DNA of 64,000 nt, taken from Eubacteriales bacterium. GTDB lineage: Bacteria > Bacillota > Clostridia > Oscillospirales > CAG-272. The notes beneath the pieces are model-generated. The model worked only from the letters and a program-made list of their open reading frames with translations, had not been told where the DNA came from and did no database searches. The stretch lies in assembly GCA_045656745.1 (NCBI GenBank), contig JAZORT010000028.1, positions 8,862-72,861 of the forward strand, written 5' to 3'. Shown in pieces: positions 21,969 through 52,582 of this stretch (positions are counted from its first letter, which is position 1; every line of letters begins with the position of its first letter). A program made the position numbers and the translations under genes.

Positions 21969-22739
21969 CTAATTTTTCAGCCCGTTTTTATACTCCTTTG
22001 GAGATATTCCGTAATACTTTTTGAATATTCTCGAAAAGTATGCAACATCAAGGATACCGCACCGCCCTGCGACCTCGCTAATACTGAAATCATAAAGGTT
22101 CATCAGTGCCTTCGCGTTTTTCATTCTTACGGAAGTAAGGTACTTTATAGGTGTCATTTTCGTTACAGAAAGGAATTTCGCCCTTATGTAATCCTCGGCA
22201 TATCCGCTTGAATTGAGGATAGTAGTAACGTCAATATCCGGATCTGCAAAATTCTTCTCAATCTCGGCACTGATCTTATGTATAACCGAGTACATATTCG
22301 GCTGAACGTCTATATGAAGCAGCAAAAACTGAATAAAGGATTCGCAAAGGCTCCTTGCATACTCTTCATTTATATAGATATTGCGCATTATTGCCTCGGC
22401 AAGAAGTCTGCCCTCACCGTAATCGTTGTCGGTAATTTTATGAAGGTCATCGGCAGAGAGCGCAAGTCTGTCAAAGCTGCCGCCAATATTTATGATTTTG
22501 TGACCGTGCTCGGAATAAACCGAATGCTCAACTCCGGGAGGAGCAATAAAAATACATCCGGGATAAAAGGCGTATTTTTTATCACCGCTGCACATCATTC
22601 CGTTGCCCTCGCGGACTACCATTATCTCGTAATGGCCGTGTGTATGGGAGCGATAATAGTTTTCGCCATCGTTTGTCAGCTTTGCGTAAATCAACTCTGC
22701 CCTCTCCTCAAATATATGTTTTTTAAAATTATAACACAA
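21969..22739 (-). CDS. AraC family transcriptional regulator (cupin plus HTH)
   Basis: Cupin block HTHGHYEIMVVREGNG. HTH: ILNSSGYAEDYIRAKFLSVTKMTPIKYLTSVRMKNAKALMNLYDFSISEVAGRCGILDVAYFSRIFKKYYGISPKEY. Confidence 0.85.
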   Translation of the reverse strand: MCYNFKKHIFEERAELIYAKLTNDGENYYRSHTHGHYEIMVVREGNGMMCSGDKKYAFYPGCIFIAPPGVEHSVYSEHGHKIINIGGSFDRLALSADDLHKITDNDYGEGRLLAEAIMRNIYINEEYARSLCESFIQFLLLHIDVQPNMYSVIHKISAEIEKNFADPDIDVTTILNSSGYAEDYIRAKFLSVTKMTPIKYLTSVRMKNAKALMNLYDFSISEVAGRCGILDVAYFSRIFKKYYGISPKEYKNGLKN

Positions 22740-22965: not shown

Positions 22966-24780
22966 ATGAAAACTGAAATTTCAAGTGAAAAAATCACGTC
23001 ATTCGTCGGCGATATTCTTCCCGTTTGGTTGATTTGCGAGGATGACGTCAGTAAAGAGGATATAAAGTGGACTATCATCGGCGAAGCGGCGCACATGCGC
23101 ACATTTGAAAAAGAGGATTACGCTTTTCGCCAGCCCGATCCGCGCCCCGGATTTACCCACGGAGTTTTGGTCACGCTGGATAAGCCGGGCAAAGCAGTTG
23201 TCAGTGCAGAATACGCAGACAAAAAATACTCCTGTGACATTCTCGTGAGAGAAGCGGTGCATACCGAGAGCGGAAGAATGAATTATTACACCGCCGATCT
23301 TCACAACCACACGACTATGATCCACCGTTACGAGGAGCTTCACTTAAGAAACGGCGACTTTCAAGAGGATTACGTACGGTATATCAAGGAAAAGGACGAT
23401 ATTGATCTTTCGGTAATTTCCGACCATGCCGACGTTATTGACCGTTGGGAATTTTTCAAGGGATTTATTGACGTTGATACGGCAAAACCCATGAACCCGA
23501 TAATTTTACCCGGTTCGGAATCGGAAATAACCTTGATCGAGGACGACCGTTACGGTCAAAGCCACAAAAACGCAGGAGAGATCGTCGTTCTCTGCGCTGA
23601 CGATATTGCCGCCGTTAAGGATTACGGTGAATTCCTTGATCGTATGAGCACAAGCCCCCACATCATTGCAATTCTTGCCCATCCCCAGGTTCTCGGATTT
23701 GACAAAAACGGTATTTGGAACTTTTCTCTTGAAAAACACAGGGATGACGGCTTTAGGGACGTTGTAAAGCTTATTGAAATGGGCGATGCCAGAGTCGAAA
23801 GCCGCGACGACGATATTATCAACGAATTTATATATTCCGTGGCGCTGGACAACGGTTACAGAGTTTCAACCACCTGCTCTTCCGACAAGCACGAAGCTCC
23901 CTGGGGCAAGGAGGCTTGCGAAGGAAAGACCATCGTCATGGCTCCCGAAAAAACGAAAGAAGCCTTTATTGACGCTCTGCGAAATGGTCGCTGTTACTGC
24001 TCGGATAGCGGAAACATAAAGCTTTACTGCGAGGTTAACGGCAAGGCACTTCCCTGCGACCTTGAACCCAACGAAAAATACCGATTCCACGTTGAGGTTG
24101 ATTATTTTGAAAAGGACGAGGACAGCGTTCCCGTAAAATGCGCAGTTATTTCGGACTACGGAAAATGCGTTAAAGAAATTACGAATGCAGATTTTTCCTC
24201 CTTCGATTTCGAAATTGAATCGGATAGTGCAAGGTGGTTCTACCTAAGACTTGAGGACAGAAAGCACCGCAAAACGCTCTCCCCACCCATCTATTGCACG
24301 AGAGAATACGATCCGATCCTGAAGGACGAGCCAAATCCTATTGATAAATCCGAATTTGAAGCAAAAGAGCTTATTTCGGGAACGAACGCTTCGGTTATCA
24401 TAAACGACAATCCCTGCGAAGCCTTTGAAAGCGAGCTTGGTCAAGCTGAAATTCTTATAGATATGAAGAAAATTCACGAGATCTCTGCTCTTGGGCATTA
24501 TCCTTACCGCTTGATCAGAAAAAAAGAGGTCGATGCGGCGCCGATAGTTGCATCGTTTGCGGGAGAATACGAGGTTTCGATTTCCACCGACGGCAAAAAC
24601 TTCACTACAGTAGCCGAGGGTGCTGTCAGAGTCTACGGTGGCGAGGTAATCATAAGATTTAAACGATCCAAGGCGAGATTCGTAAAATTCACCGTGAAAT
24701 CCAACGCCGGAAAAATGACGGGATACCCGAAATACGAAGGCCTCGGACTTAAGATCGGAGAGTTGACGGTTTTTGAATAA
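22966..24780 (+). CDS. PHP-domain (CehA/McbA-like) metallohydrolase with N-terminal Ig-like and C-terminal F5/8 type C (discoidin) domains, no signal peptide
   Basis: YYTADLHNHTTM plus VISDHADV give a PHP-like metal-binding pattern. The C-terminal segment ...YEVSISTDGKNFTTVAEGAVRVYGGEVIIRFKRSKARFVKFTV resembles a discoidin domain. Confidence 0.65.
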   Translation: MKTEISSEKITSFVGDILPVWLICEDDVSKEDIKWTIIGEAAHMRTFEKEDYAFRQPDPRPGFTHGVLVTLDKPGKAVVSAEYADKKYSCDILVREAVHTESGRMNYYTADLHNHTTMIHRYEELHLRNGDFQEDYVRYIKEKDDIDLSVISDHADVIDRWEFFKGFIDVDTAKPMNPIILPGSESEITLIEDDRYGQSHKNAGEIVVLCADDIAAVKDYGEFLDRMSTSPHIIAILAHPQVLGFDKNGIWNFSLEKHRDDGFRDVVKLIEMGDARVESRDDDIINEFIYSVALDNGYRVSTTCSSDKHEAPWGKEACEGKTIVMAPEKTKEAFIDALRNGRCYCSDSGNIKLYCEVNGKALPCDLEPNEKYRFHVEVDYFEKDEDSVPVKCAVISDYGKCVKEITNADFSSFDFEIESDSARWFYLRLEDRKHRKTLSPPIYCTREYDPILKDEPNPIDKSEFEAKELISGTNASVIINDNPCEAFESELGQAEILIDMKKIHEISALGHYPYRLIRKKEVDAAPIVASFAGEYEVSISTDGKNFTTVAEGAVRVYGGEVIIRFKRSKARFVKFTVKSNAGKMTGYPKYEGLGLKIGELTVFE

Positions 24781-25151: not shown

Positions 25152-27221
25152 ATGAGCAAAAACACTAAAATCTTAGTTATGGTTCTTTCCCTTGCCCTTA
25201 TGATCGGTGCAGCGGTTGGAATCAACGCTTCTGCTACTACCGATAGCGAAGCTCCCGTAATCGTTTCACAGAACGTTGAATACGGCGGAAACTACGCTCT
25301 TATGTATGCCGTTAAGGCAGACTCGGTTTCCGAGAGCGTAACTCTTAAGGTATACGACAATGCAGCATGCGAGGGTAATGCTTTGTGGACCGGCACTATT
25401 GCCGCTACCGAAGCTAACCAGCAGACCGTTAAGGGCGTGCAGTGCTACGTATTCACCACCAACGGTATCCCCGCAAAGGATATGGACACCCAGTTCTACG
25501 TAAAGGTTTCTTCCACCACCGGTGAGACCGTTAAGAGATACAGCGTTGCAGAGTATCTTTACGAGCGTCTTTACAAGAACGGCGTTGCATTCTCTACCAC
25601 AGAGGGTGACATTAAGCGTGCAGAGCTTTACAACACCATTCTTCTCTACGGTAAGCAGGCACAGGACGTTCTCTTCAACTACGACGCTAACCCCGATAAC
25701 GACAGAGATACCTTCGTTACCGATATGAAGTACGTTTACGTTGCAGATGGCGCAGGAACTGTTGACGGCACTTACGCTTCCGGCATTTTCGTTAAGGGCG
25801 CAAGCGTTACTCTTGCGATAGACAAGGCTATCGAAAGCTGGGATCTCTACGATGCTACTACCGGCGCAAAGATCAAGTCTATAAACGCAGGCGAAAGCTT
25901 CGCGGCAGATACTCACGTTAAGGCTGTTGCAGTTGCTACATACAGAGGTACAGGTAAGTATGCAAACTATGCGGATACCATCAACTACACAGGCGCTACA
26001 ATGGACGCTCTTATGGCTTCCAAGGACGTTACCACAAGCACAAAGAGACCTCTCGGCACTGCTAAAAAGGTCACCTTCTCTGACGGTGCTCTCGTATTTA
26101 CAAGTACCGGCTCAAGCTGGGGTTCTGTTGACTTCTACGGTCATAACCTCGACAACACCTTCGTGCTTGACACCGACTTCTTCATTGACGGCGCAACCAT
26201 AGATAAGAACCGCGCAAGCTACTTCGTTGGTCAAACTTCTTCTCAGATCGGTACAGCAGACGGTACTCTGTACGGCTTCGCACTTCAGATCTATTCCAAT
26301 CCCGACACAACTGTTGGCGGATATATGCTTGAGATAAGAAACAGCGATCTTCCCGTTGCTATCCCCGCAGGCAAATGGGTAAACGTTCGCCTTGAGGCTT
26401 ACGGTACAGCTACCGGATCTGCTATGAAGCTCTTCATAAACGGTGAGCTTGCTGCCGAATCAACAGTTTCTGCATCCATCGCATCTCTCGCAGGCCTTCA
26501 GTTCTGCCACTGCTCTACTTCCGGCGGCAACGGCTTCTCCGCAGGTGTTATGAAGCTTGACAACACCTACTTCGGTTCTATTCCCTTTGCAGGTGAGCGC
26601 GGAACGGGTGACTACGCTGAATCCGCTCTTAACTACACCGGCGTTACATTTGATTCCCTTAAGGCTGACGGTACTATCACCGCAGTTAAGACCGGCGCAA
26701 CCGTTTCTGAAAAGACTCCCGAGTCTGACGCTGCTCTTAAGTTTGACTACAAGGCAAACTCTACTTGGGGTAGATACAGCTTCAAGAACGCTACCGAGGT
26801 TACCGACAGCTACGTATTCGAAACAGATATCTGCTTCAACAATATTTCTATTCCCGCAGGTCGTGGATTCGCATTCTACGGTACCTCCAATCTTTCCGCA
26901 GATGCAGGACTCTCTTTCTTCGGCTTCACACTTGTAAAGCTTGATGACGGCGGATACGGCGTTCGCCTTAACAGCTCCAAGAACACTCCTTACGCTATCA
27001 ACCAGGGCGAGTGGTACAATATCAGAGTTGAAGTTGACGCTATTTCCAACTCCACCATGTATCTCTACGTAAACGACGTTGTCGTTGACACATACAACTT
27101 CACAAACTCTCTCACCGGCATTATGGGTGTTCAGCTTATGTGCTGGTCTACTTACAGCGGCACAGAAGGCTTCACCGGTGAAGTTTACGTTGATAACACC
27201 TATGTTGGCGCAAAAAAGTAA
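25152..27221 (+). CDS. secreted protein: signal peptide, N-terminal domain shared with 397..1854, two beta-sandwich (ConA/LamG-like) modules
   Basis: Signal peptide MSKNTKILVMVLSLALMIGAAVGINASA. Modules span about 25941-26579 and 26592-27209, each with the core VF/LxTD...(K/E)W(V/Y)N(V/I)R(L/V)E...(L/Y)(F/Y)(I/V)N(G/D)...DNTY(F/V)G. Confidence 0.8.
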   Translation: MSKNTKILVMVLSLALMIGAAVGINASATTDSEAPVIVSQNVEYGGNYALMYAVKADSVSESVTLKVYDNAACEGNALWTGTIAATEANQQTVKGVQCYVFTTNGIPAKDMDTQFYVKVSSTTGETVKRYSVAEYLYERLYKNGVAFSTTEGDIKRAELYNTILLYGKQAQDVLFNYDANPDNDRDTFVTDMKYVYVADGAGTVDGTYASGIFVKGASVTLAIDKAIESWDLYDATTGAKIKSINAGESFAADTHVKAVAVATYRGTGKYANYADTINYTGATMDALMASKDVTTSTKRPLGTAKKVTFSDGALVFTSTGSSWGSVDFYGHNLDNTFVLDTDFFIDGATIDKNRASYFVGQTSSQIGTADGTLYGFALQIYSNPDTTVGGYMLEIRNSDLPVAIPAGKWVNVRLEAYGTATGSAMKLFINGELAAESTVSASIASLAGLQFCHCSTSGGNGFSAGVMKLDNTYFGSIPFAGERGTGDYAESALNYTGVTFDSLKADGTITAVKTGATVSEKTPESDAALKFDYKANSTWGRYSFKNATEVTDSYVFETDICFNNISIPAGRGFAFYGTSNLSADAGLSFFGFTLVKLDDGGYGVRLNSSKNTPYAINQGEWYNIRVEVDAISNSTMYLYVNDVVVDTYNFTNSLTGIMGVQLMCWSTYSGTEGFTGEVYVDNTYVGAKK

Positions 27222-27318: not shown

Positions 27319-27393
27319 AAATTTAAAATTCTTACAAAGCTTAAAAGTTCAAATCAAACAGTTTTAACCACTCATTTTTTGAGGTATAAATTT

Positions 27394-28644
27394 ATGAACA
27401 AGAATTTACTCATAGGCGTTGAGCCTAAGCTAGCAGAGGCTCTTGACAGCCTTATTTCACTTTTTGATATGAGAACCATGCTTTGGTTCGCAAGACTATA
27501 CGACCCCGAAACGGGCGCATTCTATTATTCTAACAGCGGAAGAGATTACGAGGGCTTCGGTCCCGATCTTGAAAGCACGGTGCAGGGATTGCGCTGTGTT
27601 GCTAACCGCGGTATGCTTGACAATTACGGCTGCAGTCTTAAAGACGCATTGCCTAAAGATATAATAAACAAACTCCTTAACTTTACGATCAACTGTGCAG
27701 ATCCCGACGGATATTATTATCATCCGCAGTGGGGCAAAAACATATACGTTCAGCGCAGAGGCCGCGACCTTACTTGGGCAGAACAGATATTCGAATGGTT
27801 TGATGCAAAGCCGCCTTATCCCACCGCAACCCAGCTTTTGGCACAGGGCGAGCAGAACAAAGACGATGCAAGCTCTGCCCTTCCCGATTATTTCAAGAGC
27901 AAGGGCGCATATATAGATTATCTTGATTCTCTTGATTTTGCACACAAATCCTATCCTGCAGGAAACACGCTAAACGCACAGTATCCACAGATAAAAGCGG
28001 CAGGACTTCTTGATGCCACCTGCGAATATCTCATAGCTCACCAAAACGCGAAAAACGGTCTTTGGGAAGAAGAGATAAGCTACGACAGCGTTTCGGGACT
28101 TATGAAGGTTGCGGGATTCTTCGGCAACGCGGGAATGAAGCTTCCGAACTTTAATCGAGCAATAGATTCCTGTATTGATGCAACCCTTTCCGATCTTCCC
28201 GCTGCAGCGGTAGTTCAGGTGTACAACCCTCATTCGGCGGTTTCAAGCCTTACCGGCGGTATGAAAAAAATGGGTGACGAAGATGCTGTTGCATACAGCA
28301 AAAAAAGGTATCTTGACAACATTGTTCCGCTTATTGAAAAAACAAGAGATAAGCTTTTAACCTTTAGAAAGCCGGACGGCTCGTTCTCATATATGCCCGA
28401 CAGGTCGGCTTGCAAGTCGCAGGGCGCGCCCGTTGCTATCTATATGGAAAACGAGGGCGACGTTAACGCTACGACAATTGCTATGAGCGGCGGTGTCGGA
28501 ATGCTTCTCCACAATCTTGATATGCCGTTTAAGATTTACGACAGCAGTGATTTTGCTGAATTTATTTCGGTGCTTATGGCTCAAACGGTTGTAAGGAAAA
28601 AACCGGTCCCCGAAGGAAGAGAAAGCTCTCCCGGCAGATTCTGA
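27394..28644 (+). CDS. cytoplasmic prenyltransferase/terpene-cyclase-like alpha/alpha-toroid repeat protein (unknown function), paralog A
   Basis: Start at MNKNLLIG, which follows GAGGT. QW-like repeats: DPDGYYYHPQWG, QNAKNGLWEEE, KPDGSFSY, GDVNATT. No signal peptide. It aligns end to end with 39120..40343 and with residues about 241-690 of the 1845-aa lipoprotein. Confidence 0.7.
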   Translation: MNKNLLIGVEPKLAEALDSLISLFDMRTMLWFARLYDPETGAFYYSNSGRDYEGFGPDLESTVQGLRCVANRGMLDNYGCSLKDALPKDIINKLLNFTINCADPDGYYYHPQWGKNIYVQRRGRDLTWAEQIFEWFDAKPPYPTATQLLAQGEQNKDDASSALPDYFKSKGAYIDYLDSLDFAHKSYPAGNTLNAQYPQIKAAGLLDATCEYLIAHQNAKNGLWEEEISYDSVSGLMKVAGFFGNAGMKLPNFNRAIDSCIDATLSDLPAAAVVQVYNPHSAVSSLTGGMKKMGDEDAVAYSKKRYLDNIVPLIEKTRDKLLTFRKPDGSFSYMPDRSACKSQGAPVAIYMENEGDVNATTIAMSGGVGMLLHNLDMPFKIYDSSDFAEFISVLMAQTVVRKKPVPEGRESSPGRF

Positions 28645-28692
28645 TAAAAGTAATGTTTTAATAAAAATTATGTAATAAGGAAGGAAAGTTTA

Positions 28693-31600
28693 ATGAAAAA
28701 AAGCTTAAGTTTATTACTTGCTATTTTTGTTTTGCTCTTGGGGCTTAGTCTTTCATCCTGCAATTCCAAAAAAAATGATAAGGATAAAACTGACGATTCT
28801 GCTTCAAACAACAGCACGACAAATCCCCCGAACTCAAGCACCGATGCTTCGGGAGCTATTTCGGAGGGCTCGAAAATTACCATTATTTACTCAAACGAAG
28901 AAGGAAGCAAAGAAACGGCTAACCAATACAGCACCCTTCTTTCAAAAATACAAACCGCGCTTCTTTACGGCGATGTGTATTACGATGCCGTTTACGGTCA
29001 GGAGTCCTCTTCTCCCGTAAAGTATGAGATCATCGTTGGTAGATCCAATCGCTCAATTTCAACCACCGCTTACAAAAGACTTTCGAGAGTTGAAGTTTCA
29101 AAAGAAGAGGAAACCGATTATCTTCTCGGTTACGGAAGATGGATCGTTTATGCCGAGGGCGGCTCTATTGCCATAGCTTACGATGATGACGAGCATCTTG
29201 CCGCAGCTTCAAGCGCGATCAATGCTCTTATTGACGGATATTTTTCCGGCGGTGCTATTTCGTTTGAAGACGGAGTTCTTGCCGAGGGCGTAGCAGACTA
29301 TTATTCTGTTTATGAAAAACAGGATCAAGAGCAATTAGATCAGCAATGGTTCCGTCTTAAGGAGCTTCTCGGCGAGGACATTACGGCAGCTTTGCAAAAT
29401 CTTTACGGAATTTATTCTGACGGAATGATCGAATGGATGGCTAACCTTTGGGAGCCGTACACCTGTGTATGTACTACCGAGGAATGTACGCATTCTTCAA
29501 CCTACTGCGGCGGCGGAGCATTCTATTACTCCAATTCCGGCCGTAACACCGAAGGCTTCCTTCCCGACTCGGAATCAACAAGACAGATTCTTTATTTCCT
29601 TGAAAATTCGGGTATGCTAAAGACCTATAAGCAAATTCCCGATGAAATGAAGGCCGGTATCGTTCGCTTTTTAAAGAGCCTTCAAGACCCCGAGTCCGGA
29701 TATTTTTATCATCCGCAATGGGGTGACACTATTTCAAACTCCCGACGCGGACGCGACCTTGGCGACTGTACTACCCTGCTTGTTGCCTTTGGCTCTGCAC
29801 CTACATACGATGCTCCCAACGGAACAAAGGGTGACGGAATTTTAGCAGACGGAACTCCCGTTGAACAAGCAGCGCCCGCATCCCGCCTTACCGAAAGGCT
29901 TGGTCTTTCATCCGCTGTTGCAGTTTCAAAGGTTGTGCCCACCGCGGCGGCAATTCCCGCACATCTTGTTGACAAAGAATCCTTTGAAGCTTATCTTAAA
30001 GGACTTAACATAAGAGAAAACTCCTATGGTGCGGGCAACGAGCTTGCTGCACAAATGTCCGAAATTATACAGCGCGACAAGGTTCTTAAAGCAGAGGGCA
30101 AAAACTACTCGCTTGTATCTATTCTTATAAACTTCTTAAACGAAAACCAGAATCCCGACACCGGTGCTTGGGACTGGCCTATGGAAAACGATACCAGAGG
30201 AGCTTACCACGCAAACAACGGCGTGCTTAAAATCTCTATGGTTTACAGCAATGCCGGCGTTTTGTTACCTAACTACACAAAGATGGTAACCAATGCAGTC
30301 AACACTCTTCTTGACCCCGCAACTCCCGGTGCAGTTGTTGACGTTTACAACGTTTGGTACACTCTTTCTATGGTAAAGGGTAACATTGAAAGCTACGGAG
30401 GCGAAGAGGCAAAAGCGCATCTTGCGGCATTCCAGGAAGAGCTTCTTGCGAATGCGGTAACTCTTATTGACGCTACGAGAGAAAAGCTTGTTATTTTCTT
30501 GAAGCCCGACGGTTCGTTCTCTTATCACCCGAAATATTCATCCTCTAACTCCCAATCTGCAACCGTTGCCGTTCCGCAGAGCGAGGAGGGTGATGTTAAC
30601 GCAACGACCATTTGTTGTACCGGTACTATCAGCACAATGTTCAACGCCCTCGGACTTACGAAGCTAAGACCGCAGATCTATACCGATGTTGACTATATGC
30701 GATTTATTCACATCATTGAAAATCTCGACAAGGTTATAAAAGACGAGATTCCTCCTCTTGAAATAGAAGCCACCGGCGACGAAAACAAGGGCAAAGGAAA
30801 ATATTACGAGGATTCTCTTCACTTTGACGGAAGATTTTCAGACCTTGTAAACCAGGGACTCTTCTATTCGCAAAACGATATTATCAACCTTGACAGACTG
30901 AACGTTGGCGCATACGTTGGCACGACCACGGTAAATAAGGACAAGGTTATGGCGTACGGTAAGCTTATCGGCGGAAGCCCTTACCTTTACATCAACCTTA
31001 TGAACGGCAAAAATGGCAACGCAATTGTTTTTGAAACGGATATCTGCCTTATAGGCGGTTCTACCGAGTATTCTGACGGTGCCGTACTGCAGTTCTGGCT
31101 TGACGATGCAAATATCACAAACAGCGAAATGTGGTGGAACGGCTCATTCGCCTTAAAGCAGGAAGAAACCATTTTGGGCGGCGAAGATCCGATACAGCAA
31201 TATTCGGTTTCTCCCACGATGAAAAAACATCTGGTTACCTACCAAACCTGGCACAACATTCGCCTTGAGGTACAGAATTCGGGAATTGTCGGTGCTGAGA
31301 TCCGACTTTACCTTGACAACGTTCTTATAAACAGAAGCTACGTTTCTACCGCGAACACCTCGCTTGACCACCTTACTCTCAGATTCAGAGGTGACAGCGG
31401 CATTGACAGCGTTGTTCTCTTTGACAATATGTTCCTCGGTTCGTTTGACTCCATTCCCGCAGACAACACCGAGCTTATTCCGGATAACATCGAAATAGGC
31501 ACGATTGACGAGAATATCAAAAACGAGCAAATTCGCGGAACGGGTGTTTACGCAAAAGACGCTCAAACCTATGCAGATGTCAACCTTACCTACCTGAGTC

Positions 31601-34230
31601 TTATCGGAAAAATCGGCTCACAGGACGGAAAAATCACCTTTGACAAGGCCTTCTCCGGTCACTATGCGCAAATCAAGCATATAAAAAACACCGGCGAGGC
31701 TATGGTATTCGGTTCTACGACGTCAAGCGACCCCTATCTGTTCTTCTATGCTGAAGGAAACGAAGACGAAAACGACAAGTCCTTGGTCTTTGAAACCGAC
31801 TTTGCATTTATGTCGGGAACGGCAGAGGGCAGATCAGACAACCTCGTAATGCAGCTTTACGCTTCTAAAACAGAGGGTGTTTCCTACTGGTACGGACTCG
31901 GTCTTTCGATCCAACATATTGACGGAAAATATTATCTATGCGGAACAAATCTTAAGCTTCAATTGCCTGTTGCAACCTGGAATACTATTCGTATAGAGGT
32001 TGATGATACTTCAAAGACAGGCTCAGAAGCAAGAATTTACGTTAACAACACTCTTGTATCAACCTTTAACACTACTTCAAACTCCACCTACGTTCCTAAT
32101 ATGATGATACGCTTTATGTCACAGTGTAAGGACGGTAAAGTATACTTTGACAACACGTATTTCAGAGCTCCCATTGAGCCTCCGCCTCCTACACCCGTAA
32201 ATCCTCCCACAGGAACCGAGAGTGACAATATAAGCAACGGCGTGCTTTATGAAAAAGCTGAGAAATACGAGGGCAGAACCCACGAAGCTCTTATTGCCGA
32301 CGGCATAATGGCGATGAATACCAACAGAGGCACGGGTGATTTAAGAACCCTTTCCTTCTCCGACGGAGCTTTGCACTACAAGTCCAGAGGCTCTTCTTGG
32401 GGCTCGATAAACTTCGTAAGCCAAACTGACGGCACGGGATTTGTATTTGAAACAGATATCAAGCTTTCGGGAGTTGTTGCTTCGAAGGACAGACCTATTC
32501 AGTTTGCGGGAAGCTCCAATAACGGAAGCGGTAACGCATCGGTTTATCCCTTCAACATCTCAATATTCCCCTACTCCGACAAGAACGTTGGCGGTTACCT
32601 TATAACCATAAAGGGTAATACCGAGGATGTTGCCTGGATTCCCGAAGCTACCTGGGTAAACATTCGCTACGAGTTTGATACAACAGGATCCGAAGCAGCT
32701 ACAAGACTTCTTATAAACGGCGTTGCCGTTCTTGAAGCAACGTCTACCGGCGCAATCTCAAATATAACAGGCGTTGAGCTGTTTACCATGTCAACGAGCG
32801 GCGGTGTCGGATTTATTGCAGGCACTATCTCGCTTGACAATACCTGGTGCGGCGTATTGACCGAATCTGCACCAACTCCTCCTTCCGGCGGCGGTGAGGG
32901 CGGAAATACCCCCACAGAGCCTGAAACTCCCGTAGATCCTCCCGTTTCAAGCGATGATTACTACGGCAAGGGCGTATATTACGACAAGGCGATCAATTAC
33001 ACAGGCGCAACTCACGCATCTCTTATTTCCGCAGGCCTTATGGCAGAAAACACACCAAGGGGTCTTGGCGGTAAAACGCTTTCCTTCACTGACGGAGCTA
33101 TGGTTTACGCCGGAGTAAAATCCTCATGGAGTGCTATAAACTTCATAAAGCGCGGCTCGGGCGAAGGTATGGTATTCGAAACCGACATAAAGATCGACGG
33201 AGCCGATATCTCGAAGAACAGAGCCACCCAGTTTGTCGGTACTTCAAACAACGGTACCGGAAACGCGGGACTTTACGCATTCCGTATTTCTATTTATTCA
33301 AACGCTGACGGCGGTTATATCATTGAGATCAAGGACAGCGACAAGCAGATCGCAATTCCCGAGGGCAAGTGGGTAAACATCCGCTATGAGTTTGAGACTC
33401 TTACTCTCGGCTCAAGCGTTAAGCTCTACGTAAACGGCGAGCTTGTTATCGAGACCGTATCAAGCGACTCTATATCCAATATCAAGGGCGTTGAAATGCT
33501 TCATTCGTCCAATAACGGCGCAGATCTCGGCTTCTCAAACGGTACTATCACGCTTGACAATACCTATTGCGGAAGCATCTTTGTCGACCAAGGCTCAAGA
33601 GGCGAGGGCGCATACAAGGACTTGGCTGCGGGCTTTGAAGGCGTGACCTTCGATGATCTTGTAACAAGCGGCGCTATTACGCCCGTCAACGCCTCCTCTG
33701 CCCCTGCTTCTATCGTTGATGTGTCGGGTGACAATGCTGTAAAGGTATCGTCAAGCGGCTCGTCCTGGGCAAGATACAGCATCAAGAAGCAAGGTACTGC
33801 CGCTAATATGGTATTTGAGACCGATATGATGATCGAGGATTACTCAAGCTCGGCTACAAGATACTTCTACATCATGCCTACCTCGAATCTCTCGGCAAAC
33901 GCCTCGCTCTATGCTGCGTATATCGTGCTTATGCCTAATTCCGATGGTGGATACGATATCTACCTTAACGATGCAAGCGAAAGCAAGTATACCGTAACCC
34001 AGGGCAAGTGGTTTAACCTTAGAGTTGAATTTGACGGTCTTAGTATGGGCGACAGATTCTGCATCTACGTAAACGGTGAGCTTCTTGCCGAAGCCACCCT
34101 GCAAAAGTCCATTTCAAACGCTCAGGGACTTCAGCTCCAGCTCCCCGGAAGGAGCGGAGATAACGCAGGCGTTGTAGGTAATATCTACTTCGACAACACC
34201 TATCTCGGCGACAAGAAAACTGAAGAATAA
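28693..34230 (+). CDS. 1845-aa multidomain surface lipoprotein: lipobox, N-terminal domain, alpha/alpha-toroid domain, five beta-sandwich modules
   Basis: MKKSLSLLLAIFVLLLGLSLSSC gives a signal peptide plus lipobox, followed by a low-complexity S/N/D linker. The toroid domain spans about nt 29413-30762. Five modules occupy nt 30784-34212, separated by Pro/Thr-rich linkers (IEPPPPTPVNPPTG, APTPPSGGGEGGNTPTEPETPVDPP). Confidence 0.85.
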   Translation: MKKSLSLLLAIFVLLLGLSLSSCNSKKNDKDKTDDSASNNSTTNPPNSSTDASGAISEGSKITIIYSNEEGSKETANQYSTLLSKIQTALLYGDVYYDAVYGQESSSPVKYEIIVGRSNRSISTTAYKRLSRVEVSKEEETDYLLGYGRWIVYAEGGSIAIAYDDDEHLAAASSAINALIDGYFSGGAISFEDGVLAEGVADYYSVYEKQDQEQLDQQWFRLKELLGEDITAALQNLYGIYSDGMIEWMANLWEPYTCVCTTEECTHSSTYCGGGAFYYSNSGRNTEGFLPDSESTRQILYFLENSGMLKTYKQIPDEMKAGIVRFLKSLQDPESGYFYHPQWGDTISNSRRGRDLGDCTTLLVAFGSAPTYDAPNGTKGDGILADGTPVEQAAPASRLTERLGLSSAVAVSKVVPTAAAIPAHLVDKESFEAYLKGLNIRENSYGAGNELAAQMSEIIQRDKVLKAEGKNYSLVSILINFLNENQNPDTGAWDWPMENDTRGAYHANNGVLKISMVYSNAGVLLPNYTKMVTNAVNTLLDPATPGAVVDVYNVWYTLSMVKGNIESYGGEEAKAHLAAFQEELLANAVTLIDATREKLVIFLKPDGSFSYHPKYSSSNSQSATVAVPQSEEGDVNATTICCTGTISTMFNALGLTKLRPQIYTDVDYMRFIHIIENLDKVIKDEIPPLEIEATGDENKGKGKYYEDSLHFDGRFSDLVNQGLFYSQNDIINLDRLNVGAYVGTTTVNKDKVMAYGKLIGGSPYLYINLMNGKNGNAIVFETDICLIGGSTEYSDGAVLQFWLDDANITNSEMWWNGSFALKQEETILGGEDPIQQYSVSPTMKKHLVTYQTWHNIRLEVQNSGIVGAEIRLYLDNVLINRSYVSTANTSLDHLTLRFRGDSGIDSVVLFDNMFLGSFDSIPADNTELIPDNIEIGTIDENIKNEQIRGTGVYAKDAQTYADVNLTYLSLIGKIGSQDGKITFDKAFSGHYAQIKHIKNTGEAMVFGSTTSSDPYLFFYAEGNEDENDKSLVFETDFAFMSGTAEGRSDNLVMQLYASKTEGVSYWYGLGLSIQHIDGKYYLCGTNLKLQLPVATWNTIRIEVDDTSKTGSEARIYVNNTLVSTFNTTSNSTYVPNMMIRFMSQCKDGKVYFDNTYFRAPIEPPPPTPVNPPTGTESDNISNGVLYEKAEKYEGRTHEALIADGIMAMNTNRGTGDLRTLSFSDGALHYKSRGSSWGSINFVSQTDGTGFVFETDIKLSGVVASKDRPIQFAGSSNNGSGNASVYPFNISIFPYSDKNVGGYLITIKGNTEDVAWIPEATWVNIRYEFDTTGSEAATRLLINGVAVLEATSTGAISNITGVELFTMSTSGGVGFIAGTISLDNTWCGVLTESAPTPPSGGGEGGNTPTEPETPVDPPVSSDDYYGKGVYYDKAINYTGATHASLISAGLMAENTPRGLGGKTLSFTDGAMVYAGVKSSWSAINFIKRGSGEGMVFETDIKIDGADISKNRATQFVGTSNNGTGNAGLYAFRISIYSNADGGYIIEIKDSDKQIAIPEGKWVNIRYEFETLTLGSSVKLYVNGELVIETVSSDSISNIKGVEMLHSSNNGADLGFSNGTITLDNTYCGSIFVDQGSRGEGAYKDLAAGFEGVTFDDLVTSGAITPVNASSAPASIVDVSGDNAVKVSSSGSSWARYSIKKQGTAANMVFETDMMIEDYSSSATRYFYIMPTSNLSANASLYAAYIVLMPNSDGGYDIYLNDASESKYTVTQGKWFNLRVEFDGLSMGDRFCIYVNGELLAEATLQKSISNAQGLQLQLPGRSGDNAGVVGNIYFDNTYLGDKKTEE
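30784..34212 (+). repeat. five tandem copies of a roughly 210-aa beta-sandwich module inside the lipoprotein gene
   Basis: Approximate module boundaries in nt: 30784-31443, 31531-32166, 32221-32856, 32953-33576, 33586-34212. Each holds (V/L)VFETD(I/F/M), W(H/N/V/F)N(I/L)R(L/I/Y/V)E, (L/I)Y(L/V)(D/N)N or (I/V)NG, and a terminal (F/L)DN(M/T)(F/Y/W)(L/F/C)G. Confidence 0.75.
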
Positions 34231-34243
34231 CGAAACAAGAAAA

Positions 34244-34276
34244 CGGCTCCCGTTAAAGAGCGGGAGTCGTTATTTT
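34244..34276 (+). terminator. intrinsic terminator after the lipoprotein gene
   Basis: Stem cggctcccg (34244-34252) pairs with gcgggagtcg (34260-34269) with one mismatch, followed by ttatttt. Confidence 0.5.
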
Positions 34277-34311: not shown

Positions 34312-35262
34312 ATGAAAAACGAGAAAATCTGGGCATTCCTCATTCACCTCGGCTCTAATATGTGGGCAAAAAAAGGTACAACGTGGGGAAGAAGACTGCA
34401 CATAGAAGAATTTGGTTATAAAGACGAAATGTTCTGTGACAGAGAGGTTTGGAAAAAGGTCGTTGACTTCCTTCCCTCTCAAGGCTTTAATACCCTGCTC
34501 ATCGACATAGGCGAGGGACTTGTGCTTGACTCTCACCCGGAGATTGCAACCAAGGGTGCTTGGACAAAGGAAGAATTAAAGGCAGAAATCGTAAGGCTTC
34601 GCGAAATGGGAATTACCTGTATTCCGAAGTTTAATTTCTCCACAAGACACAATGCATGGATGGGAGAATGGGCTTACAGAGTCGGCGCACCGGAATATTA
34701 CCAGATGTGCCGCGACATCGTTGAAGAGGTTATTGACCTCTTTGAAACTCCGAAGCTTTTCCATCTTGGTCTTGAAGAGGAGATAGCTCACCAAAACGAT
34801 AGCGTAAATATCTGCCGTTCCGCAAAAAAGAAAATCGAGGATGCACTCGACCTTATCAACCTTTGCATAAAAAGAGGCGTGCGCCCTTGGATATGGCTTG
34901 ACGTTGACGGCTTTGGCGGATGGGATAATTTCTGTAAGAATATCCCCAAGGAAACCGTAGTATCGACCTGGTTCTACGGAATAATCCCCCCTAACGGCAA
35001 TCCCAAAAGCGCACCTAAAGAGGCTTATTACATGAAGGAGCTTGACGAATACGGCTACGAGCAGATCCCCACAAGCTCATCAAGGCAGTATCATCTGAAC
35101 TCCAAGGAAACGATGATGTTCGGGCAGGAATACTGTAATAACGGTACTATCATCGGTCATATGACCGCGTCTTGGTATCTTACTACCGAGCGCAGACTTT
35201 ACGCACTCTATAACGATGCCTACATATTTAACTGGGCAAGAAAAGACGTTTTCGGCGAATAA
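34312..35262 (+). CDS. 316-aa cytoplasmic TIM-barrel-like hydrolase candidate, tandem paralog 1
   Basis: RBS GGAGAA. The motif FHLGLEEE recalls the GH20-type H-x-G-x-D/E-E catalytic block, but the family is unassigned. It has the same length as the next gene and, by eye, is about three quarters identical to it. Confidence 0.7.
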   Translation: MKNEKIWAFLIHLGSNMWAKKGTTWGRRLHIEEFGYKDEMFCDREVWKKVVDFLPSQGFNTLLIDIGEGLVLDSHPEIATKGAWTKEELKAEIVRLREMGITCIPKFNFSTRHNAWMGEWAYRVGAPEYYQMCRDIVEEVIDLFETPKLFHLGLEEEIAHQNDSVNICRSAKKKIEDALDLINLCIKRGVRPWIWLDVDGFGGWDNFCKNIPKETVVSTWFYGIIPPNGNPKSAPKEAYYMKELDEYGYEQIPTSSSRQYHLNSKETMMFGQEYCNNGTIIGHMTASWYLTTERRLYALYNDAYIFNWARKDVFGE

Positions 35263-35283
35263 ATTGAAAAAAGGAAATAAAAA

Positions 35284-36234
35284 ATGAGAAACGAAAGAAT
35301 TTGGGCATTCCTCATACACCTAGGCTCAAATATGTGGGCTAAAAAAGGAACTACTTGGGGAAGAAAAATACACGAAGAGGACTTTGGCTACAAGGAAGAG
35401 ATGTTCTGCGACAGAGAGGTTTGGCGCAAGGTCGTCGACTTCCTTCCCGAACAAGGCTTCAACACCCTGCTTATCGACATCGGCGAAGGTCTGCAGCTTG
35501 ACTCTCACCCCGAGCTTGCCACCAAGGGCGCTTGGACAAAGGAAGAGCTTCGCGCGGAAATCAAGAGGCTGAAGGAAATGGGAATCACCTGTCTTCCCAA
35601 GTTTAACTTCTCCTGCCGTCACAACGCTTGGATGGGCGAGTGGGCTTACAGAGTAGGCTCTGCCGAGTATTATCAGATGTGCCGTGACATCGTTGAAGAG
35701 GTTATCGACGTATTCGACACTCCCGAGCTCTTCCACCTCGGTCTTGAGGAGGAAGTCCCCCACCAGAACGACGAGGTCAGCATTTGCCGTTCTCCCGAAA
35801 AGAAGATCGAAGACGCTCTCGACCTCTTTGCCGTCTGCCGTAAAAAGGGCGTTCGTCCTTGGATATGGCTCGACGTTGAAAGCTTTGGCGGTTGGGATAA
35901 GTTCTGTGAAAGAATTCCCAAGGACGTCGTTATTTCGACCTGGCACTACGGAATGATCCCCAACAACGGCGATCCCAAGAAGGTTGACAAAGAAGCGTAT
36001 TACATCAAGGAGCTTGACGAATACGGCTACGACCAGATCCCCACAAGCTCTACCTGGGCTTGGCATTGCAACACCAAGGACACTATGAATTACTGTAAGA
36101 TGTATTGCGAAAACGGTACGGTTATCGGATATATGACCGCCTCCTGGATGCTTACCTGCAAGCGCAAGCTCCACGCCCTTTACAACGATGCATATACCTT
36201 CGGCTGGGCAAAGCGTGATATTTACGGAGAATAA
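35284..36234 (+). CDS. 316-aa cytoplasmic TIM-barrel-like hydrolase candidate, tandem paralog 2
   Basis: Collinear with 34312..35262 (MRNERIWAFLIHLGSNMWAKKGTTWGR.. vs MKNEKIWAFLIHLGSNMWAKKGTTWGR..). It starts 21 nt after paralog 1. Confidence 0.7.
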   Translation: MRNERIWAFLIHLGSNMWAKKGTTWGRKIHEEDFGYKEEMFCDREVWRKVVDFLPEQGFNTLLIDIGEGLQLDSHPELATKGAWTKEELRAEIKRLKEMGITCLPKFNFSCRHNAWMGEWAYRVGSAEYYQMCRDIVEEVIDVFDTPELFHLGLEEEVPHQNDEVSICRSPEKKIEDALDLFAVCRKKGVRPWIWLDVESFGGWDKFCERIPKDVVISTWHYGMIPNNGDPKKVDKEAYYIKELDEYGYDQIPTSSTWAWHCNTKDTMNYCKMYCENGTVIGYMTASWMLTCKRKLHALYNDAYTFGWAKRDIYGE

Positions 36235-38366: not shown

Positions 38367-39095
38367 ATGGAGTTTGTTATGATTAACGTAAAATTAATCG
38401 AAAGTGAAGCTTCAAAAACCACTAAAACAGCACCGGAGCATAGAATCATCCAAATAATCGAAGGCAAAGGTCAAATCAAAACAGCAAGATCCTCTTACGA
38501 TCTGTTCCCCGGTCTTATAGTAATAATTCCGCCAAAGCTTGAATACACCTTGTCATTCAGCGCTGAAAGCAGATTGATTTCTATGGAAGGCAACTTCTCA
38601 AGGCTATACTTTTTAAAAGAGGTTTACTGTCTTCTTGACAACCTTTACAAAGAAGGACAGATGCTTGCCGAGGCTATGCTTCGACACAGCCGTGAAAACA
38701 AGGATTATACCGTTACCCTCTTCGATGCATATTTGAAATATATCTCGCTTAACGTCACCGCTTTTGACAGCTTTAATTCAATAATACACTCTATAACGAC
38801 AAAAATTGAAAACAGTTACAGCGATCCATATTTCGACCTTATGCAGCTGATAAGCAGTCAAGGATATGCTACCGACTACGTTAGAGCGAAATTCCTAAAG
38901 ATAACGGGAATGACGCCGGTTGAATATCTGATGAACGTCAGAATAAACAATGCAAAAACGATGCTTGAAATATTCGACGATGCTTGCATTCAGGAAATAG
39001 CCTCAAGATGCGGTTATTTTGACTCCGCGTACTTTACAAGGTGCTTTAAAAAGATCGTTGGAATGTCACCGAGAGAATACCGGCAAAAGCACTAG
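38367..39095 (+). CDS. AraC family transcriptional regulator
   Basis: HTH: LISSQGYATDYVRAKFLKITGMTPVEYLMNVRINNAKTMLEIFDDACIQEIASRCGYFDSAYFTRCFKKIVGMSPREY. The ATG at 38379 (MINVK), which follows GGAG, may be the true start. Confidence 0.85.
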   Translation: MEFVMINVKLIESEASKTTKTAPEHRIIQIIEGKGQIKTARSSYDLFPGLIVIIPPKLEYTLSFSAESRLISMEGNFSRLYFLKEVYCLLDNLYKEGQMLAEAMLRHSRENKDYTVTLFDAYLKYISLNVTAFDSFNSIIHSITTKIENSYSDPYFDLMQLISSQGYATDYVRAKFLKITGMTPVEYLMNVRINNAKTMLEIFDDACIQEIASRCGYFDSAYFTRCFKKIVGMSPREYRQKH

Positions 39096-39119: not shown

Positions 39120-40343
39120 TTAAGGCATTCTTCCTTCGGGAACGGGCGCTTTTACTACCGGCTTTTGAGCTCTTATAATTGATATGAATTCTTCAAAATC
39201 AGCCTTGTCGAAGGTTTTGGAAGAGATTCCCAGATTTGTAAGCAATATTGATATTACACCGCCCGAAACTATCGTAGTGGCATTTACGTCACCTTCTGCC
39301 GTTTCCTTAAGAGCGGAAGGAACATTTTGAGATCTTGCGGCTGAAAAATCGGGAGAATAGGAAAAGCTTCCGTCCGGCTTTGCAAACACCCTTGCCTTAT
39401 CGGTGGCCGAGCGTACTATATCGTAGGCATTTTCGTGCAACCTTGAGATAAGCTTTGACGCGTCGTAGCTTTCATCCACGAGCTTTAACATATATATCTG
39501 CTGGCTCAATGCAGATATGGGGTTATAAATATAAACTATTTGGTCTACCTTATCCTTGGATTTCAGCAATGAAAAGATACTGTTTGCTACCGTTTCGGAA
39601 TAATTGATCTTTCTTCCGGCGTTGATATATATAGCGCTGAGCTTCATTAAGCCGGAAATACTTCGGTAGGATATTTCATCCTCCCAAAGACCGTTCTTAA
39701 GATTTTGCTTTGAATCAAGGAATTTACAGCACTCATCAAGTAGTCCTGCTGCTTTTATTTGTACCATTTGGGAATTGAGGGCATTTCCGAAGGGGAAAGA
39801 GCTTTTAAGCTCAAATTCCTTTTCAAGATATTCGCGAAATACCTTTTTGCTCTTTAAGTGGTCGGGAATCGCTTTTGCGCTTTGGCGCTCGCTTCCCTGA
39901 AGCAACTCAACGGCGGTTTTTCTCGGCGGGGTTTTGCCAAGCATATTATAGACTATTCTCCCCCACTGAAGGTCGCGACCTCTTCTCGACGTTCCTATAT
40001 TTTTTCCCCATTGAGGATGATAGAAATATCCGTCATCCGAAAGGCAGGAGTCGGCAAATCCAACAAGCTTATCCGCTATATCGGCAGGCATAGCCTTTGC
40101 CATGCTTCCATAGGATTCGATCATTCCTCTGTCGTCTATAAAGCGCAAAATCTGTGCTGTGCTTTCAAGGTCTACGCCAAAGCCTTCGTGATCCCTCGCA
40201 CTCTCCGAATAGTAAAAAGCTCCGCTTTGGGGATCCCAAAGTCTTGCCATCCAACGAACGGCGTCCATATTAAGCAAAAATACGAATTCCTCAAGAGCGT
40301 CTGCAAATTTTCTATCAAGTCCCAAAAGAAAATCTTTATTCAC
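39120..40343 (-). CDS. cytoplasmic prenyltransferase/terpene-cyclase-like alpha/alpha-toroid repeat protein, paralog B
   Basis: I prefer the GTG start at 40343 (VNKDFLLGLDRKFADAL), which follows AAGGAG and aligns with MNKNLLIGVEPKLAEAL of paralog A. The track ATG at 40376 has no SD. Motifs: DDGYFYHPQWG, QNLKNGLWEDE, KPDGSFSY, GDVNATT. Confidence 0.7.
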   Translation of the reverse strand: MNKDFLLGLDRKFADALEEFVFLLNMDAVRWMARLWDPQSGAFYYSESARDHEGFGVDLESTAQILRFIDDRGMIESYGSMAKAMPADIADKLVGFADSCLSDDGYFYHPQWGKNIGTSRRGRDLQWGRIVYNMLGKTPPRKTAVELLQGSERQSAKAIPDHLKSKKVFREYLEKEFELKSSFPFGNALNSQMVQIKAAGLLDECCKFLDSKQNLKNGLWEDEISYRSISGLMKLSAIYINAGRKINYSETVANSIFSLLKSKDKVDQIVYIYNPISALSQQIYMLKLVDESYDASKLISRLHENAYDIVRSATDKARVFAKPDGSFSYSPDFSAARSQNVPSALKETAEGDVNATTIVSGGVISILLTNLGISSKTFDKADFEEFISIIRAQKPVVKAPVPEGRMP

Positions 40344-40569
40344 GGTTGTATACACTCCTTGTAAAAAATATATCATCTGTTTGTATTATAATATATTTTA
40401 TCTGAAAACAGCTAGGACAAAACAGAGCGTGTTTTGTACAAAACATAAATTTGGCGTATTTTGCCTCTAATATTACGGCAATGTGCAAGTTTATATCGGT
40501 ATAATCCGTTGTATATATCCGAGTATAATGCTATAATTTACATAATCCATAAAATTTAAGGAAGAAAAC

Positions 40570-52581: not shown

Positions 52582-52582
52582 T

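Follow-up and report, generated by a model that had tools for sequence, protein, structure and literature searches.

A predicted surface lipoprotein carrying an apparently undescribed alpha/alpha toroid is part of a multiplied, putatively glycan-acquiring gene cassette of uncultured gut Clostridia

We analysed a stretch of 64,000 nt of DNA from Eubacteriales bacterium (contig JAZORT010000028.1; hereafter the window) by sequence comparison and structure modelling, and focused on the open reading frame (ORF) at 28693–34230 on the plus strand, which encodes a predicted lipoprotein of 1845 amino acids (aa) and was confirmed at exactly these coordinates. An exact-sequence match against the protein collection returned no identical entry. 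The original prediction had read this gene on its own, as that of a giant lipoprotein with four types of domain. The gene is instead one part of a conserved and highly multiplied cassette, which in about 80 loci, in permuted order, is made up of the lipoprotein, a cytoplasmic protein with the same toroid domain, a secreted protein that we call C2 and, usually, an AraC-family regulator. The predicted architecture was right: the translation, Pfam hidden Markov models (HMMs), self-comparison and AlphaFold2 (AF2) models together showed the lipobox and its tether, an N-terminal domain (N-domain), the toroid and an array of laminin G (LamG)-type modules. The features of the gene, in order, are as follows.

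28677–28688 (+): Shine-Dalgarno sequence AAGGAAGGAAAG, whose AAGGAAGG core ends 8 nt 5' of the ATG at 28693
28693–28761 (+): lipoprotein signal peptide with lipobox L-S-S-C (Cys23), from the translation
28762–28866 (+): low-complexity tether rich in S, N, D and T, aa 24–58 (35 residues), from the translation
28867–29337 (+): N-domain, aa 59–215, with the predicted alpha/beta fold of the N-terminal accessory domains of GH20 (GH20b), GH84, GH115 and GH67 (GH, glycoside hydrolase), from AF2 and Foldseek
29338–30762 (+): alpha/alpha toroid, aa 216–690, the conserved core of the family, all helical in the AF2 model
29458–29514 (+): four-Cys insertion in the toroid, aa 256–274 (C258, C260, C265, C272), from the sequence and a family census
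29800–29967 (+): long toroid loop, aa 370–425, the second half of which, LTERLGLSSAVAVSKVV, is a motif of secreted forms, from loop comparison and census
30781–31446 (+): module M1, aa 697–918, from self-comparison; conserved in the ortholog L007
31528–32139 (+): module M2, aa 946–1149, from self-comparison; conserved in the ortholog L007
32233–32859 (+): module M3, aa 1181–1389, from self-comparison; 52% identical to M4
32953–33582 (+): module M4, aa 1421–1630, from self-comparison; 47% identity with module one of C2
33592–34209 (+): module M5, aa 1634–1839, Laminin_G_3; 37% identity with module two of C2
34237–34283 (+): terminator-like hairpin with U-rich tail, from fold energy against shuffled sequences

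The N-terminus of the protein, MKKSLSLLLAIFVLLLGLSLSSC, has the layout of a lipoprotein signal peptide, MKKS-LSLLLAIFVLLLGLS-LSSC, in which a charged n-region is followed by a hydrophobic h-region and by a lipobox that conforms to the pattern [LVI][ASTVI][GAS]C and ends in Cys23. The lipobox and the S/N/D linker of the original prediction are both borne out, the latter as the S/N/D/T-rich tether, and an equivalent lipobox is present in most long homologs. The gene had also been credited with its own Shine-Dalgarno sequence and terminator, and both are present: the former at a spacing of 8 nt, the latter as a hairpin at 34237–34276 with a folding energy of −22.2 kcal/mol and a z-score of −5.7, which none of 200 shuffled sequences equalled and which is followed by UUAUUUU. 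A separate transcription unit does not follow from these signals. Only 48 nt separate the stop codon of the upstream cytoplasmic toroid gene from the lipoprotein start, and nothing resembling a promoter was found there, so the lipoprotein gene probably shares a transcript with the genes before it rather than standing alone.

The domain that had been placed after the linker at roughly 180 aa is there, at about 160 aa (aa ~59–215). It is restricted to secreted family members, and the E, G and R of its EIxxGxxxR motif are invariant. Residues 1–690 of the lipoprotein gave zero Pfam matches even at E ≤ 1, Glyco_hydro_20b included, and sequence searches of Pfam, NCBIfam and PDB returned nothing for the N-domain. 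Its AF2 model (predicted local distance difference test score, pLDDT, 88.7) matched in a Foldseek search of PDB the GH84 structure 6pv4 (CpGH84A; E 2.2e-4, probability 1.00) and the GH115 structure 4c90 (8.6e-4), with GH20 and GH67 N-domains coming next, within the top 20. The modelled fold is thus the one shared by the N-terminal accessory domains of GH20, GH84, GH115 and GH67.

The toroid was modelled with high confidence (pLDDT 91.5; predicted template-modelling score 0.90), and neither the whole lipoprotein nor the cytoplasmic paralog as query found a Pfam, NCBIfam or PDB sequence match for it. Foldseek against PDB returned nothing with E < 1e-3. The top match was the squalene-hopene cyclase 8pak (E 5.5e-3, probability 0.99, template-modelling (TM) scores 0.31/0.40), and the later ones included GH105, GH76 and GH116, a 2-epimerase, glucuronate dehydratase, intrinsic factor/transcobalamin and the thioester-containing domain (TED) of complement. 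Searching PDB with a profile of the toroid family gave a non-significant match to complement C4 TED (E 0.15), covering the F-x-K-x-DGS-F/Y hairpin only, and 35 toroid-only members compared with Pfam at E ≤ 10 gave scattered sub-threshold matches to Prenyltrans (3 of 35, best 0.003), TED and SQHop_cyclase (SQHop_cyclase_C in 1 of 35). A motif check found neither a thioester motif (C[GAS]EQ/CGEQ) nor DxDD in the toroid, and no significant sequence or structure likeness to a characterised member of an (alpha/alpha)6 GH or polysaccharide lyase (PL) family was detected. Because there is no sequence match, no significant fold match and neither CGEQ nor DxDD, we regard the toroid as a new family inside the broad six-hairpin fold class. 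Two more specific identities were rejected, namely that of a thioester TED (no CGEQ-type motif, and the C4 TED profile match at E 0.15) and that of a class II cyclase (DxDD absent, Pfam matches sub-threshold).

These results also bear on the proposal that the toroid is not carbohydrate-active but belongs with the terpenoid cyclases or prenyltransferases, or is another lipid or isoprenoid enzyme, with the triterpenoid or saponin aglycones of plants in the herbivore gut as one conceivable substrate. The squalene-hopene cyclase as top match, the sub-threshold Prenyltrans and SQHop_cyclase_C matches and the Q-x-P-x-x-G-x-F/Y hairpin motifs, which can be read repeatedly in the toroid sequence, would all fit such an enzyme. 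We nevertheless consider it highly improbable, as DxDD is missing, the TM scores stay at 0.31–0.40 with every match below significance, an extracellular site would be without access to isoprenoid diphosphates, and the gene context described below is consistently one of AraC regulators, glycosidases and amino-sugar catabolism.

As a family, the toroid is large and anonymous. An HMM of the toroid alone, searched exhaustively against 1.84 billion proteins, yielded 1424 clusters at 50% identity, of which the best 150 were considered individually; a scan of one genome per species across 185,579 species representatives gave 219 confirmed matches; and a word-indexed search with aa 1–760 of the lipoprotein as query found 148 relatives, all unnamed or called 'hypothetical protein [Clostridia bacterium]'. 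Nothing relevant to the toroid family or the cassette was found in the literature searched. The word 'giant' does not suit the protein in the window, which at 1845 aa is mid-range in a family whose members reach 2351 aa in the genome loci and 2627 aa among the exhaustive-search matches listed; these longer members also overturned an interim conclusion, drawn from the aa 1–760 query, that 1845 aa was the longest in the family. Many family members measure 650–850 aa and have few or zero modules, and 271 members other than the present one combine N-domain and toroid. About 20 polar or aromatic toroid residues show conservation of 92% or more in both classes, secreted and cytoplasmic, among 419 members (W248, Y278, R284, D292, E294, T296, Q298, Y339, H340, Q342, W343, R351, R354, D355, W493, K513, N553, E632, D634 and N636). 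The invariant motifs GxFYYSNSxR, LPDxEST, YFYHPQW, RRGRD, KxDGSFSY and EGDVNAT match no described family. A divergent subtype was observed at L077:9806–18648, where four tandem toroid proteins of 670–730 aa (GGYYATTSGHDTEGFGPD) have a C-terminal extension of about 200 aa and lack both N-domain and lipobox.

Two insertions in the toroid had been described as lipoprotein-specific, a claim that we examined by family censuses. The Cys-rich insertion is real, with four cysteines rather than five, spaced CxC-x4-C-x6-C and modelled as a beta-hairpin (pLDDT 65–73). Across 424 family members it is present in 43 of 234 parsable secreted forms (~18%), and the one non-secreted carrier seen is P0109, a 481-aa protein without signal peptide; short and long versions exist, but the number of cysteines is always four. 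Although nearly exclusive to secreted forms, the insertion, at 43/234, thus marks a subclade of secreted proteins and not lipoproteins generally, and the notion of a general lipoprotein feature was rejected on this census. With their number constant at four, the cysteines may pair in two disulfides or hold a structural Zn ion. The Ala/Pro-rich insertion is likewise present, yet it adds about 30 aa and not about 60, the loop that holds it being 106 aa long against 75–78 aa in the cytoplasmic paralogs of the window (family-wide medians: 100 aa in secreted and 80 aa in cytoplasmic forms). Its two halves differ. The first (PTYD.P.G.KGDGILADGTP) also occurs in 39 of 83 cytoplasmic members and is ancestral, while the second (LT..LG.S.A.AVSKVV) is carried by at least 154 of 213 secreted forms, against 2 of 83 cytoplasmic ones, both of these matches being spurious, so that specificity holds for the AVSKVV half and not for the first. 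This secreted-specific segment is conserved and has low model confidence (pLDDT 53–79), as might be expected of a lid or of a motif for interaction.

Self-comparison resolved the C-terminal region into the five beta-sandwich modules that had been predicted, and M1 and M2 are indeed more divergent than the others, with 22–28% identity to any other module compared with 52% between M3 and M4 and 31–35% between M5 and either of these. M5 alone clears the Pfam cut-off for Laminin_G_3 (PF13385; E 1.2e-10, 42.1 bits against 27.6), and M1–M4 are placed in this group via homology to M5 (22–35% identity) and the common motifs VFETD, WxNxRxE and DNxYxG. Against PDB, the module profiles matched alginate lyase 6kcw (3.7e-4) and the carbohydrate-binding modules (CBMs) CBM66 4b1m (7e-3) and CBM40 4c1w (7e-3; 0.03 with the C2 profile). 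By these comparisons the modules are assigned to the ConA-like superfamily, with polymer binding as their putative role. The Pro/Thr linkers said to join all of them were found between M2 and M3 and between M3 and M4 but not between M1 and M2, nor between M4 and M5, where the gap is 3 residues. M4–M5 is 41% identical over 430 aa to both modules of the adjacent C2 protein, which indicates module exchange within the cassette.

The remaining genes of the window that belong or are related to the cassette are listed here.

397–1908 (−): second secreted protein of the C2 family (cluster 2 member), 503 aa, no Pfam match
21969–22739 (−): AraC-family regulator, cluster c1, from Pfam HTH_18, HTH_AraC and AraC_binding
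25152–27221 (+): C2, the secreted partner (cluster 2), 689 aa, with a type-I signal peptide, an N-terminal domain of unknown type and two modules of the LamG type
27379–28644 (+): cytoplasmic toroid protein, 416–421 aa, no signal peptide, 33% identical to lipoprotein aa 230–687
34312–36234 (+): two tandem cytoplasmic proteins of 316 aa (34312–35262 and 35284–36234), cluster c22, with a weak GH20-like signal
39120–40376 (−): second cytoplasmic toroid paralog, 418 aa, 32–33% identical to the lipoprotein toroid

Locus counts, neighbourhoods and genome spread rest on the best 77 distinct loci (~80 loci gene by gene). The lipoproteins of these cassettes (650–2351 aa) carry a lipobox, the N-domain, the toroid and a variable C-terminal region; the cytoplasmic partners (410–490 aa) consist of the toroid only; and C2 proteins (450–730 aa) have a type-I signal peptide and LamG-type modules at their C-terminus. 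The three neighbour clusters with most members are those of the toroid proteins, of C2 and of the AraC regulators: regulators of cluster c1 flank the cassette in 42 loci, C2 adjoins the toroid genes in 51 of the ~80, and in 62 of 89 cassettes a cytoplasmic toroid gene lies within three genes of the lipoprotein gene on the same strand, mostly directly adjacent to it. The 77 loci come from 15 metagenome-assembled genomes (MAGs) only, with up to 20 loci from one genome; the hosts are uncultured Clostridia, Oscillospiraceae and Eubacteriales, and the labelled ones are from deer gut. Recurrent neighbours encode DUF4838, GH20, GH4 and GH39 proteins, all without signal peptide. The locus L004 adds NagA, NagB and Gfo/Idh/MocA, and L001 adds GlcNAc 2-epimerase, DUF4838 and PIG-L. 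The carbohydrate genes of the window itself encode GH43, esterase, GH106-like and GH20-like proteins, the last being the tandem 316-aa proteins, which have no signal peptide and match Pfam Glyco_hydro_20 below threshold (E 2.4e-4). The sole Pfam signal in the C2 protein of the window is a sub-threshold match to Laminin_G_3.

Several further genes touch on the cassette. Between its AraC gene and C2 lies an ORF (22966–24780, +) whose 604-aa product ends in an F5/8 type C (discoidin) domain and may be a further secreted carbohydrate-binding part of this one cassette. The second C2-family protein is probably part of another cassette that extends off the left end of the window. The second cytoplasmic toroid gene has no lipoprotein partner and is for this reason called an orphan; it adjoins an AraC gene of its own (38367–39095, +), and downstream of it on the plus strand are genes for a PF12831 FAD-dependent oxidoreductase (40570–41874) and for a 549-aa protein without Pfam match (41876–43525).

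The closest locus to that of the window is L007, which belongs to a MAG from water-deer colon. The two loci are syntenic, the identities being 62% for AraC, 62% for C2, 73% for the cytoplasmic toroid protein, 51% for the lipoprotein and 66–69% for the GH20-like proteins. Its lipoprotein, of 1635 aa, keeps M1 and M2 and then has two M5-like modules in place of M3–M4–M5. The comparison of module copy number between orthologs that had been suggested therefore shows variation, with five modules in the window and four in L007. The GH20-like gene is single in L007, so its duplication in the window appears recent. At L007:6519–8024, C2 is split into ORFs of 325 and 174 aa, which is due either to a frameshift or pseudogene or to an error of MAG assembly.

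The same comparison speaks to the concern, voiced with the original prediction, that separate genes were joined into one long ORF by an artefact of assembly or sequencing. Repeated modules can in principle mislead assemblers; beyond this we found nothing to suggest an artefact, and we put its probability close to nil. The layout is continuous in L007, the 271 members with N-domain and toroid go on into long C-terminal regions, the modules share at the DNA level only patches of 32–44 nt at 62–88% identity, there are no long repeats in the gene, and its G+C is even throughout. Given a continuous ortholog, hundreds of similar relatives and the absence of long DNA repeats, we take an artificial fusion to be excluded.

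The toroids on the two sides of the membrane are coupled. In 62 cassettes with a lipoprotein and a partner cytoplasmic toroid protein, the identity matrices of the two toroid sets correlated with r = 0.63, a value reached in 0 of 999 permutations, and with r = 0.47 when only paralogs within one genome were compared. The lipoprotein toroids were on average closer to their own partners than to non-partner cytoplasmic toroids of the same genome (39.4% against 35.0% identity; Wilcoxon p = 1e-4). From this correlation and the conserved residues that the two forms have in common, both appear to use the same site and to co-diverge. Fusions connect the parts of the cassette further. C2–toroid fusions occur in L014, P0040 and P0059 and thereby link C2 and toroid functionally; the one at L014:15872–18667 (+) encodes a secreted protein of ~930 aa with a signal peptide, a C2 domain, a LamG module and a C-terminal toroid. 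In two other loci (L002:7938–9998, +, and L037:6072–8126, +), an XRE-type helix-turn-helix (HTH; HTH_3), an SRA-like region and a toroid are joined in cytoplasmic proteins of 685–687 aa without transmembrane segment, which replace both the cytoplasmic toroid gene and the AraC gene and keep nearly all of the conserved toroid residues.

We favour, with moderate confidence, the view that the lipoprotein acts at the cell surface for a cassette that acquires glycans in the manner of a polysaccharide utilisation locus (PUL), with catalysis, substrate, lipidation and exposure as predicted elements of it. A layout of this kind, in which a regulator, surface proteins and intracellular glycosidases are co-localised and multiplied per genome, is what the loci present. 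In the proposed mechanism, the lipid anchor would hold the N-domain and toroid near the membrane, while the LamG array and free C2 would reach through the wall and bind the polymer. The toroid would cleave, or at least hold, the polymer at a predicted pocket with many Asp, Glu, Arg, Lys, His and aromatic residues, and the products would be imported. The cytoplasmic toroid protein would then act on the same chemical motif, together with GH20, DUF4838, GH4 or GH39 enzymes, and the AraC regulator would sense a product and control expression. Different cassettes would handle different glycans, those containing N-acetylhexosamine (HexNAc) or acidic sugars being the leading guess for the family as a whole.

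Several results weigh against this view. No signature of a known GH or PL family was found in the toroid. Its weak affinities lean to the branch of prenyltransferases, terpene cyclases and TED and to cobalamin-binding proteins, several of which are not glycosidases, and the HTH–toroid fusions suggest that a toroid can serve to sense a ligand instead of acting as an enzyme. The cassette includes no transporter; ABC-like clusters were found in only ~4 of ~80 loci. In the window, the neighbouring paralog (33% identity) is no closer to the lipoprotein toroid than the distant paralog is (32%), and the lipidation and surface exposure of the lipoprotein are predictions only.

Some of these points would be accommodated if the lipoprotein were a non-catalytic surface protein for glycan binding and capture, in which the toroid binds a ligand in the manner of transcobalamin, intrinsic factor or TED, the cytoplasmic toroid serves as a sensor or chaperone feeding the AraC regulator, and other enzymes do the cleaving. 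The missing catalytic signature, the presence of the non-enzymatic intrinsic factor, transcobalamin and complement TED among the Foldseek matches, and the one-component sensor-regulator layout of the HTH–toroid fusions, with the conserved residues nearly all kept, agree with such a role. We find it rather unlikely all the same: the N-domain is of a type known to precede catalytic domains; five acidic residues plus Arg, Lys and His are more than 92% conserved in 419 members, which is more typical of enzymes; and with C2 and the lipoprotein as the sole extracellular parts, and the neighbouring GHs cytoplasmic, a polymer would be unusable without an extracellular depolymerase. An adhesin or structural protein of the cell envelope, whose LamG array attaches to host or plant surfaces with the toroid as a scaffold, would agree with a long modular protein that varies in module number between orthologs and with the BspA-type leucine-rich repeat surface protein encoded in the same window. 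It would leave the cytoplasmic toroid partner, the co-divergence, the AraC regulators and the conserved polar residues unexplained, and many family members, at 650–850 aa, have few or zero modules; we therefore hold it to be improbable.

Within the favoured view of a surface component for glycan acquisition, a bolder proposal is possible, which we make tentatively: the toroid would be a new family of carbohydrate-active enzymes, hydrolases or lyases, that work in matched pairs and, together with C2 and the AraC regulator, form the principal and massively diversified glycan-foraging system of a lineage of uncultured herbivore-gut Clostridia, a monoderm counterpart of the PULs of Bacteroidota built from entirely different parts. 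The fold classes and the logic of the locus are known. As far as databases and literature go, the toroid family, its extracellular/cytoplasmic pairing, C2 and the extreme multiplication in a narrow lineage appear undescribed. The single lipoprotein is ordinary in its family, and it is the family and the cassette that deserve experimental attention. If these inferences are correct, ~1400 unannotated clusters would fill a large coding block, with cassettes of roughly 7–12 kb each, in certain Clostridia of ruminant and deer guts, and that block would be the core of the nutrient-acquisition strategy of the host organisms. The repertoire of carbohydrate-active enzymes would gain a new catalytic or binding fold family, and the combination of lipoprotein toroid, cytoplasmic toroid and C2 would serve as a marker for Gram-positive glycan loci, where prediction remains poor. 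The co-diverging outside and inside toroids would offer a natural system for the study of specificity matching across a membrane, and the HTH–toroid fusions would suggest that the domain was recruited as a transcriptional sensor.

Two other genes of the window were noted. A 1260-aa protein (56335–60117, +) that combines DUF4011 and AAA_11/AAA_12 helicase domains with an MTES_1575 restriction-endonuclease-like domain at its C-terminus looks like a defence or DNA-processing helicase-nuclease unrelated to the cassette. The gene at 52574–54196 (+) encodes an unusual fusion of 4Fe-4S domains (Fer4_5, Fer4 dicluster) with a C-terminal thioredoxin-fold domain of the Redoxin/AhpC-TSA type.

Lastly, each part of the lipoprotein, and the cassette as a whole, can be set beside known systems. 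The N-domain resembles those of GH84, GH115, GH20 and GH67 enzymes in predicted fold and in its placement right before the presumed catalytic domain, but there a TIM barrel follows and here an alpha/alpha toroid, and a sequence match to Glyco_hydro_20b is lacking. With the six-hairpin toroids (squalene-hopene cyclase, prenyltransferase, TED, GH105, GH88, GH76 and GH116) the present toroid shares its all-helical build and weak fold and sequence affinities; it differs in that no match is significant, TM scores are 0.2–0.4, DxDD and CGEQ are absent and the family has invariant motifs of its own. The modules are allied by the M5 score and the profile matches to ConA-like and LamG sandwiches such as Laminin_G_3, the CBM66 of Bacillus subtilis levanase, the CBM40 of NanA and jelly-roll alginate lyases, although they have their own motifs and form arrays that hold from 0 to 6 or more modules and change between orthologs. 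PULs, both the Sus-like ones of Bacteroidota and the 'Gram-positive PULs' of Lachnospiraceae, are regulator-linked clusters for one glycan each that are multiplied per genome with diversified specificity, and they combine surface lipoproteins with intracellular exo-glycosidases. The window cassette is functionally analogous in its regulator linkage, its multiplication and its pairing of a surface lipoprotein with intracellular exo-glycosidases. Unlike them, it is without a SusC/SusD pair and without a transporter gene, in a monoderm clostridial host; its toroid pair and C2 fall in no described family, and one and the same domain is deployed as a matched extracellular and cytoplasmic pair.

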